Positions 14,861-15,257 of a DNA stretch of 30,093 nucleotides are shown one piece after another. Each line of letters opens with the position of its first letter. Positions within the stretch are counted from its first letter, which is position 1. This stretch comes from a virus (taxonomy: Duplodnaviria > Heunggongvirae > Uroviricota > Caudoviricetes), in the IMG/VR virus record IMGVR_UViG_2562617113_000015, positions 1 to 30,093 of that record; one strand, given 5' to 3'. Below the pieces are notes generated by a model. That model searched no databases and was not told the DNA's origin. It saw only the letters and a list, made by a program, of their open reading frames with translations. A program made the position numbers and the translations under genes.

Positions 14861-15257
14861 ATGTCTGAACCCTTGTCCGGTTCCGGTACGGCTGCGGCGC
14901 TCGGCGGGGCGACGGTATTCGGGCTGTTTACCGGAACGGATTTCGGGATTGTGTTTGGGGCGTTCGCTGGGGCGTTTATTTGTGGGCAACAATGCCGCAG
15001 GGCGCTTTCAGCCTGGCGGGTTGCGGCACATTTTTCTGGTGTCGTTTATTGTCGGCGTGCTGGGTGCGCATGTGCTGTCAGCCTGGATTGCGCTGAAAAC
15101 AGGTTATGACGGTACATCGGCGGATGCACTGTGTGCGGTGCTGGTGGCGGTGGTGTCGGTGAAGATTCTCTCGTTCATCCACCAGCAGGATATTGCATCG
15201 CTGGTGTCCGGCCTGTTCTCCCGCCTGCGGGGTGGAGGAGGCGGCAATGTTAAGTAA
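14861..15257 (+). pseudogene. Holin-like four-helix membrane protein, frame-disrupted at two short T runs
   Basis: AGGAG RBS; a continuous membrane-protein-like reading needs two frame changes, near 14975-14980 (T3) and 15031-15035 (T5); the in-frame products between them are Cys/Arg-rich, as expected for out-of-frame translation. Confidence 0.55.

Follow-up and report, generated by a model that had tools for sequence, protein, structure and literature searches.

The holin gene of this phiP27-like prophage, which the deposited sequence presents as two broken reading frames, is most likely intact in the organism that carries it. The four extra bases that break it are best explained as errors of the deposited consensus, that is, as a local consensus or chimeric-assembly artefact, and we put the probability of this reading at roughly 0.87. 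We infer, rather than observe directly, both the cause (consensus or assembly error as opposed to mutation) and the presence in the source strain of a second prophage of a toxin-carrying type.

The stretch analysed, hereafter the window, is 30,093 nt long. It is the terminal 30,093 bp of contig AHZD02000010.1 (GCA_000247665.4), with which it shares 100% identity over the 21.4 kb compared. The contig belongs to a draft genome dated 2013, that of E. coli O157:H43 strain T22, which is a manual assembly of 454, Ion Torrent and SOLiD reads, and from the published read counts we calculate a depth of ~8x for Ion Torrent and ~9x for 454. On the question of gene splitting across the T22 genome as a whole the published gene counts are ambiguous: the genome announcement gives 5,587 predicted genes, and the strain table of a later comparative study gives 4,792, in a column that we read as a CDS count.

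The three genes of the lysis cassette that concern us here are the following.

14861-15257, + strand: phiP27-type putative holin gene (PF16931, Phage_holin_8), 397 bp here against 393 bp (130 aa) in relatives.
15247-15522, + strand: second holin-like gene (PF05449, Phage_holin_3_7), 91 aa, intact, overlapping the end of the first holin gene by 11 nt.
15525-15902, + strand: M15 peptidase endolysin gene (PF13539), 125 aa, intact.

The initial annotation was correct in assigning 14861-15257 to a holin. As deposited, the locus contains an ORF of 82 aa (14861-15109) that overlaps, in another frame, an ORF of 102 aa (14949-15257). A Pfam profile search matches the 82-aa ORF to positions 1-41 of PF16931 at 38.3 bits and the 102-aa ORF to positions 56-121 at 38.4 bits, the gathering score of the family being 26.4 bits. 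When the frame is repaired as described below, the resulting 130-aa protein spans the whole profile (positions 1-121) at 82.8 bits, and it matches PHROG 198, 'holin', with an E value of 1.4e-41. Kyte-Doolittle hydropathy, which is crude beside a dedicated transmembrane predictor, gives the repaired protein three strong hydrophobic stretches and a weaker N-terminal one, or about 3-4 transmembrane segments. Its tail, ...SRLRGGGGGNVK, is a polar or charged C-terminus, as is characteristic of holins. The position within a lysis cassette agrees as well, with Q (PF06530) upstream and the Phage_holin_3_7 and M15 endolysin genes immediately downstream, and DNA searches found the same order here as in phiP27-like prophages: holin_8, holin_3_7, M15 endolysin, HNH, P27-family small terminase. 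Pfam's own label for PF16931 is 'putative' phage holin, and, judged by its sequence, the gene is an ordinary member of this known putative family in a known type of prophage, with nothing biologically new about it.

Alignment of the locus to intact homologues reveals four insertions, each lengthening an existing run by one base.

14975-14977, + strand: insertion 1, TTT where all relatives have TT, a +1 shift of the ancestral frame.
14984-14986, + strand: insertion 2, GGG where all relatives have GG.
15000-15002, + strand: insertion 3, GGG where all relatives have GG, returning the ancestral frame to its starting frame for 32 nt.
15031-15035, + strand: insertion 4, TTTTT where all relatives have TTTT, the last shift, into the frame of ORF 14949-15257.

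The initial annotation had described a frame broken twice, at the TTT and the TTTTT. The extra bases at both of those runs are indeed there, but the count does not hold, as both GGG insertions were overlooked and the true number of +1 insertions is four. The ancestral frame thus runs A > C (8 nt) > B (15 nt) > A (32 nt) > C, and not A > B > C. When each of the four runs is shortened by one base, the 393-bp ORF is recovered, with a product of 130 aa. The deposited record contains no single uninterrupted ORF of ~128-130 aa at this position, a failure that we attribute to sequence error and not to biology. Among the insertions private to the window, four of six fall inside 57 bp of the 20.9 kb of comparable sequence (p ~5e-7 under independence), and a single local cause is therefore required.

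In E. coli, the best 40 of ~350 complete-genome matches are all 393 bp in length and carry an intact annotation, and tblastn finds one in-frame holin match in each of the 7 matching phage records. The uninterrupted 393-bp, 130-aa ORF is present in E. coli E21845, phiP27 and phiSTEC1575-Stx2k, and the entries of the family in a large protein collection are mostly 125-131 aa long. Other broken members of the family do occur, with their frameshifts at different places. The 76-bp frameshifted stretch itself has no exact match in viral_contigs or genome_contigs, which carries no information, as neither set contains the source draft. The exact products of the 82-aa and 102-aa ORFs are likewise absent from the protein collection, an absence of little weight, since the gene caller had used another start and recorded a 100-aa product. 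In the same collection, the 90% cluster of the intact holin lists two 102-aa proteins (P0007 and P0012; 'MLSPSLNAAQATFGAVDN...') that bear no resemblance to the holin, which looks like a quirk of the clustering.

These comparisons bear directly on the idea that the locus encodes two separate small membrane proteins, or one protein made by programmed frameshifting or slippage at the T runs. The two ORFs do overlap, and two small PHROGs of 'unknown function', phrog_21855 and phrog_16047, match only residues 1-46 and 58-130 of the holin, respectively. Such partial matches imply that split or frameshifted copies of the holin have been deposited before, broken in about the same region. Against two genes or recoding, the best 40 of the E. 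coli matches and all the phage records carry one in-frame protein of ~130 aa, the gene is uninterrupted in the clonal sibling, and the other broken members are shifted elsewhere. Recoding would furthermore have to change frame four times to stay with the homologues, twice at GG/GGG, and runs of 3-5 nt are not known to act as contingency loci. We consider this explanation scarcely credible.

The most informative comparison is with other assemblies of the same clone, some of which are derived from Illumina data. The closest, LYNF01000001.1 (GCA_001953095.1; L030 and L055 in our set), comes from a clonal relative of T22 or from T22 re-sequenced, and has the same prophage at the same site, beside yecE; a search of the literature found no paper citing LYNF01. 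From -3394 to 14330 in window coordinates (17.7 kb), LYNF01 and the T22 record show no mismatch and differ only by two single-base gaps, at 6330 and 9892, with no difference at all in the 3.4 kb of host flank. From 14835 to 16373 the differences are confined to the holin gene (4 insertions and 10 substitutions, between 14991 and 15095 in the case of the substitutions), and from 15930 to 30093 there are 4 substitutions, 3 of them within 12 bp, and no indels. Three further contigs of the clone (L032, L033 and L035) show no mismatches and lack the insertions at 6330 and 9892. The contig in AHZD02 and that in LYNF01 (3.9 Mb) both end in the tail genes of the prophage, within ~780 bp of one another, the usual picture when an assembly breaks at a tail module of which the prophages of a genome carry repeated copies.

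The remaining single-base extensions of the window are these.

6330-6331, + strand: CC where siblings have C; the cro-like gene of the YdaS family is cut to 47 aa (99 aa in siblings).
9892-9897, + strand: A6 for the siblings' A5; it splits the gene for a DnaC-like ATPase (292 aa in siblings) into 81 aa and 213 aa.
14567-14572, + strand: a T6 run where 11 toxin-prophage loci have T5; a +1 run extension private to the record, inside a foreign block of 504 bp.

The first of these confirms the cro frameshift that the initial annotation had reported. All of the indels private to the T22 record (7/7) are +1 extensions of an existing run, an error type that fits the bias of the platforms used (454, Ion Torrent and SOLiD), and they are absent from the independent assemblies of the same clone. 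The holin (130 aa), the cro-like protein (99 aa), the DnaC-like protein (292 aa) and an AraC-family protein (247 aa) are all intact in L021/L029 and in L030. In a collection of ~15 billion proteins, the corresponding broken products come from the T22 contig only: a holin of 100 aa (ENO08857.1), a Cro of 47 aa (ENO08845.1), a DnaC of 81 aa and an AraC fusion of 144 aa. The repaired holin, taken as a whole, has no identical entry in that collection. The large terminase, in turn, is listed in 6,459 of its blocks and is too common to serve as a probe for the source. Two Logan contigs on which the 213-aa fragment is called were considered as carriers of the T22-type DnaC lesion and rejected, since they have G6>G5 or a different upstream sequence and not A5>A6.

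The initial annotation had leaned towards a decaying, lysis-defective prophage. Put in full, this would mean that the T22 prophage has truly lost its holin, cro, DnaC-like loader and AraC genes and is on its way to domestication, and the deposited sequence does carry the frameshifts. Selection on a lysogen would favour the inactivation of lysis, switch and replication genes during prophage domestication. The lineage of this prophage has undergone some real decay: an ORF6N/antirepressor-like gene (ORF 6607-7374) has a 1-bp deletion near 7350 (GCCGCC > GCCCC, window 7340-7360), giving a product of 255 aa where more distant relatives have 284-286 aa. The deletion recurs in at least 14 contigs belonging to the clone, which makes it a real polymorphism that they share. 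The lesions private to the T22 record are of a different kind. None of the seven is found in any other assembly of the clone, and every one is a +1 run extension. A spectrum of two indels and zero substitutions over 17.7 kb against LYNF01 is the opposite of what evolution produces. One hit is enough to kill a gene, and selection offers no explanation for four +1 insertions in 57 bp, for which independent mutation gives the p value of ~5e-7 quoted above. The record, moreover, comes from error-prone chemistries at low depth. The lean towards decay is thus not supported, and we regard true pseudogenisation as distinctly unlikely.

The surroundings of the holin gene provide a further line of evidence, in the form of sequence that is foreign to this prophage lineage.

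14331-14834, + strand: 504-bp block foreign to the lineage, made up of the 3' portion of the B-subunit gene of a subtilase-family AB5 toxin and the spacer before the holin.
14991-15095, + strand: patch with 10 substitutions when compared with the clonal sibling.

The block sits where the siblings have 503 bp, consisting of the 3' end of the AraC gene and a spacer, and is therefore a nearly length-neutral swap; the two sequences have no similarity on either strand. The block was also checked as an inverted, complemented or reversed copy of the siblings' 503 bp, and these possibilities were rejected. Its identity to E. coli NADC1036 (L026:3001-3503) is 99.8%, the sole difference being the +1 T run at 14567-72. 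In NADC1036 this sequence comprises the 3' part of a gene annotated as 'subtilase family AB5 toxin binding subunit' and the spacer that precedes a paralogous holin, in a prophage that carries LT-II/pertussis-like toxin genes. At the junction 14330/14331, the gene of the AraC family, whose product has 247 aa in siblings, breaks off at codon 131 and continues into the last ~69 codons of the AB5 B-subunit gene. The resulting 144-aa junction product is in no other assembly, and the junction is probably a chimeric join; were it real, it would represent a remnant of a toxin operon. The window lacks an A-subunit gene, a complete B-subunit gene and LT-II genes.

The patch of substitutions points to the same source. 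Nine of the ten correspond to the holin allele of the LT-II/pertussis-like-toxin prophages, alternating with bases of the sibling type, and the tenth, 15093C, is neither parental allele and gives a Leu, in 'WIALKTG', that is seen in none of the other family members compared. Illumina-derived Logan contigs of toxin prophages (L045-L048, n=4) stop within the first 75 nt of the holin gene, which fits the holin acting as an intragenomic assembly repeat.

We propose, as the most economical cause, that the consensus from 14331 to 15095 was built from reads, or from one poor read end, of a second prophage in T22 of the LT-II/pertussis-like-toxin type, a type that bears a paralogous holin. Reads from such a paralogue would account for the foreign 504-bp block, the patchwork of paralogue SNPs and the four over-calls in 57 bp together. 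The isolated insertions in the cro gene (6330) and the DnaC-like gene (9892) would be ordinary homopolymer over-calls. Flow chemistries such as 454 and Ion Torrent miscount bases in runs, and the setting would be a low-depth assembly of such reads joined by hand and supplemented with short SOLiD reads. A search for a second toxin prophage through the family of the AB5 B subunit listed 10 places, with T22 not among them, and lt genes are not reported in the T22 genome announcement. At its left junction the block is without homology, a feature that a simple collapse of repeats does not predict and that counts against that form of the proposal; the right junction coincides with the start of the holin-upstream homology.

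The same observations might be accounted for by one real recombination, in which a heteroduplex with an LT-II-type prophage was patchily repaired to leave the block and the mosaic, while error-prone repair synthesis added the four bases. The interval from Q to the holin is a hot spot of cargo exchange in this group of phages, the right junction lies at a homology boundary, and the SNP mosaic is composed of real alleles. Seven allele switches in ~800 bp together with four insertions would, however, be extreme for one event, and patchy repair would account for the block and the mosaic but leave the insertions unexplained. The otherwise identical LYNF01 has none of it, the junction product is in no other assembly, and the same +1 type of error recurs in the record at the unrelated sites 6330, 9892 and 14567-72. 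These considerations make a single recombination very improbable.

We have also considered the claim that T22 truly carries the deposited sequence, in which one patchily repaired recombination with a toxin prophage would have left AraC joined to a remnant of an AB5 B subunit and the holin frameshifted four times over. This we judge unlikely. If it were true, it would be a freshly disabled, lysis-defective phiP27-like prophage caught in the act within a single clone.

Error in homopolymers had been the second choice of the initial annotation, in the form of systematic indel errors. The data support homopolymer error as such, but not the word systematic: the errors look local and associated with repeats. 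They are probably repeat-induced and local rather than genome-wide, and they seem to be enriched in the prophage rather than spread uniformly, given that the 3.4-kb host flank is clean in the comparison with LYNF01. Error had been given second place on the grounds that it would not have spared the large structural genes. That argument is weak, as the independent error loci number only about three (cro, DnaC and the holin cluster). By our own arithmetic the chance that all three would fall in one half of the window is ~0.1-0.25, and their all being in its first half is statistically unremarkable. The late region, moreover, contains a cluster of substitutions private to the T22 record.

24052-24063: three substitutions in 12 bp (siblings read G for A, G for T and G for A), peculiar to the T22 record and lying in the spacer that separates the gp17-like gene from the Ig-domain tail gene.

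This cluster looks like another local problem of the consensus. A further substitution private to T22 is found at 29832.

The wider context of the prophage yields several observations in their own right. Between Q and the holin, the siblings and relatives carry varied cargo: AraC; TerB-like plus DUF3927; the Kiwa pair (KwaA/KwaB) plus a methyltransferase; stx2e, in phiP27; and pertussis-like toxin genes. The loci concerned are listed here.

L031:15966-17377: cargo locus between Q and holin.
L017-L020, around 14310-14884: cargo loci between Q and holin.
L011/L014: cargo loci between Q and holin.

At the other end (window 1-1314 and, to the left of the window, the host flank L028:3020-5085), the integrase gene overlaps a shortened yecE (DUF72, 256 aa). 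The integration site of phiP27 is yecE. [quoted passage not shown] Outside E. coli, a record named 'Actinobacillus phage vB_Apl-pPE4' (PP818812.1) has 90% DNA identity to the E. coli phiP27-type lysis cassette. This is unexpectedly close for a phage of the Pasteurellaceae, and the host assignment or the purity of PP818812.1 may be questionable.

Our conclusion is that the breaks in the holin, cro and DnaC-like genes, the fusion of AraC to the B subunit, and the protein entries derived from them, ENO08857.1 and ENO08845.1 among others, should not be taken as evidence of decay or of deficient lysis in T22. More generally, clusters of frameshifts in early drafts made by flow chemistry, chiefly those in repeated prophage modules, need to be checked at the level of reads or against sibling genomes before they are interpreted biologically. 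Comparison of clonal assemblies, as used here, is a cheap and general test for frameshift artefacts in draft genomes.

Set against known systems, the locus is closest to that of phiP27 and its relatives. The nearest named holins are L28 of phiP27 (NP_543080.1) and the E. coli 'putative holin' WP_001294582.1, in PF16931 and PHROG 198. The phiP27 prophage has ~92% DNA identity to the window over the lysis cassette that includes L28, annotated as 'holin', and keeps the same cassette order, and E. coli E21845 has 96.5% DNA identity over the holin gene itself. The window differs from phiP27 in its four extra bases and its patch of paralogue SNPs, and also upstream of the holin, where phiP27 has stx2e and the window has a fragment of AraC fused to a fragment of an AB5 B subunit. 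With the lambdoid prophages of type II ETEC that carry LT-II/pertussis-like toxins (NADC1036, phage Rac-SA53 and SerU-LTIIb) the window shares the block 14331-14834 and nine of the ten SNPs of the patch, whereas the remainder of the window is a different prophage, phiP27-like and situated at yecE. The lesions themselves resemble the known homopolymer errors of 454 and Ion Torrent drafts and the mixing of paralogues in the consensus of repeated prophage modules, in that the indels are only +1 changes of run length, clumped and confined to one record; the Illumina-era assemblies of the clone lack them. Unlike classic flow over-calls, two of the runs are truly only 2 nt long, which is short for such errors, and this argues less for simple miscounting of runs than for a read end of poor quality or a misalignment of mixed reads.
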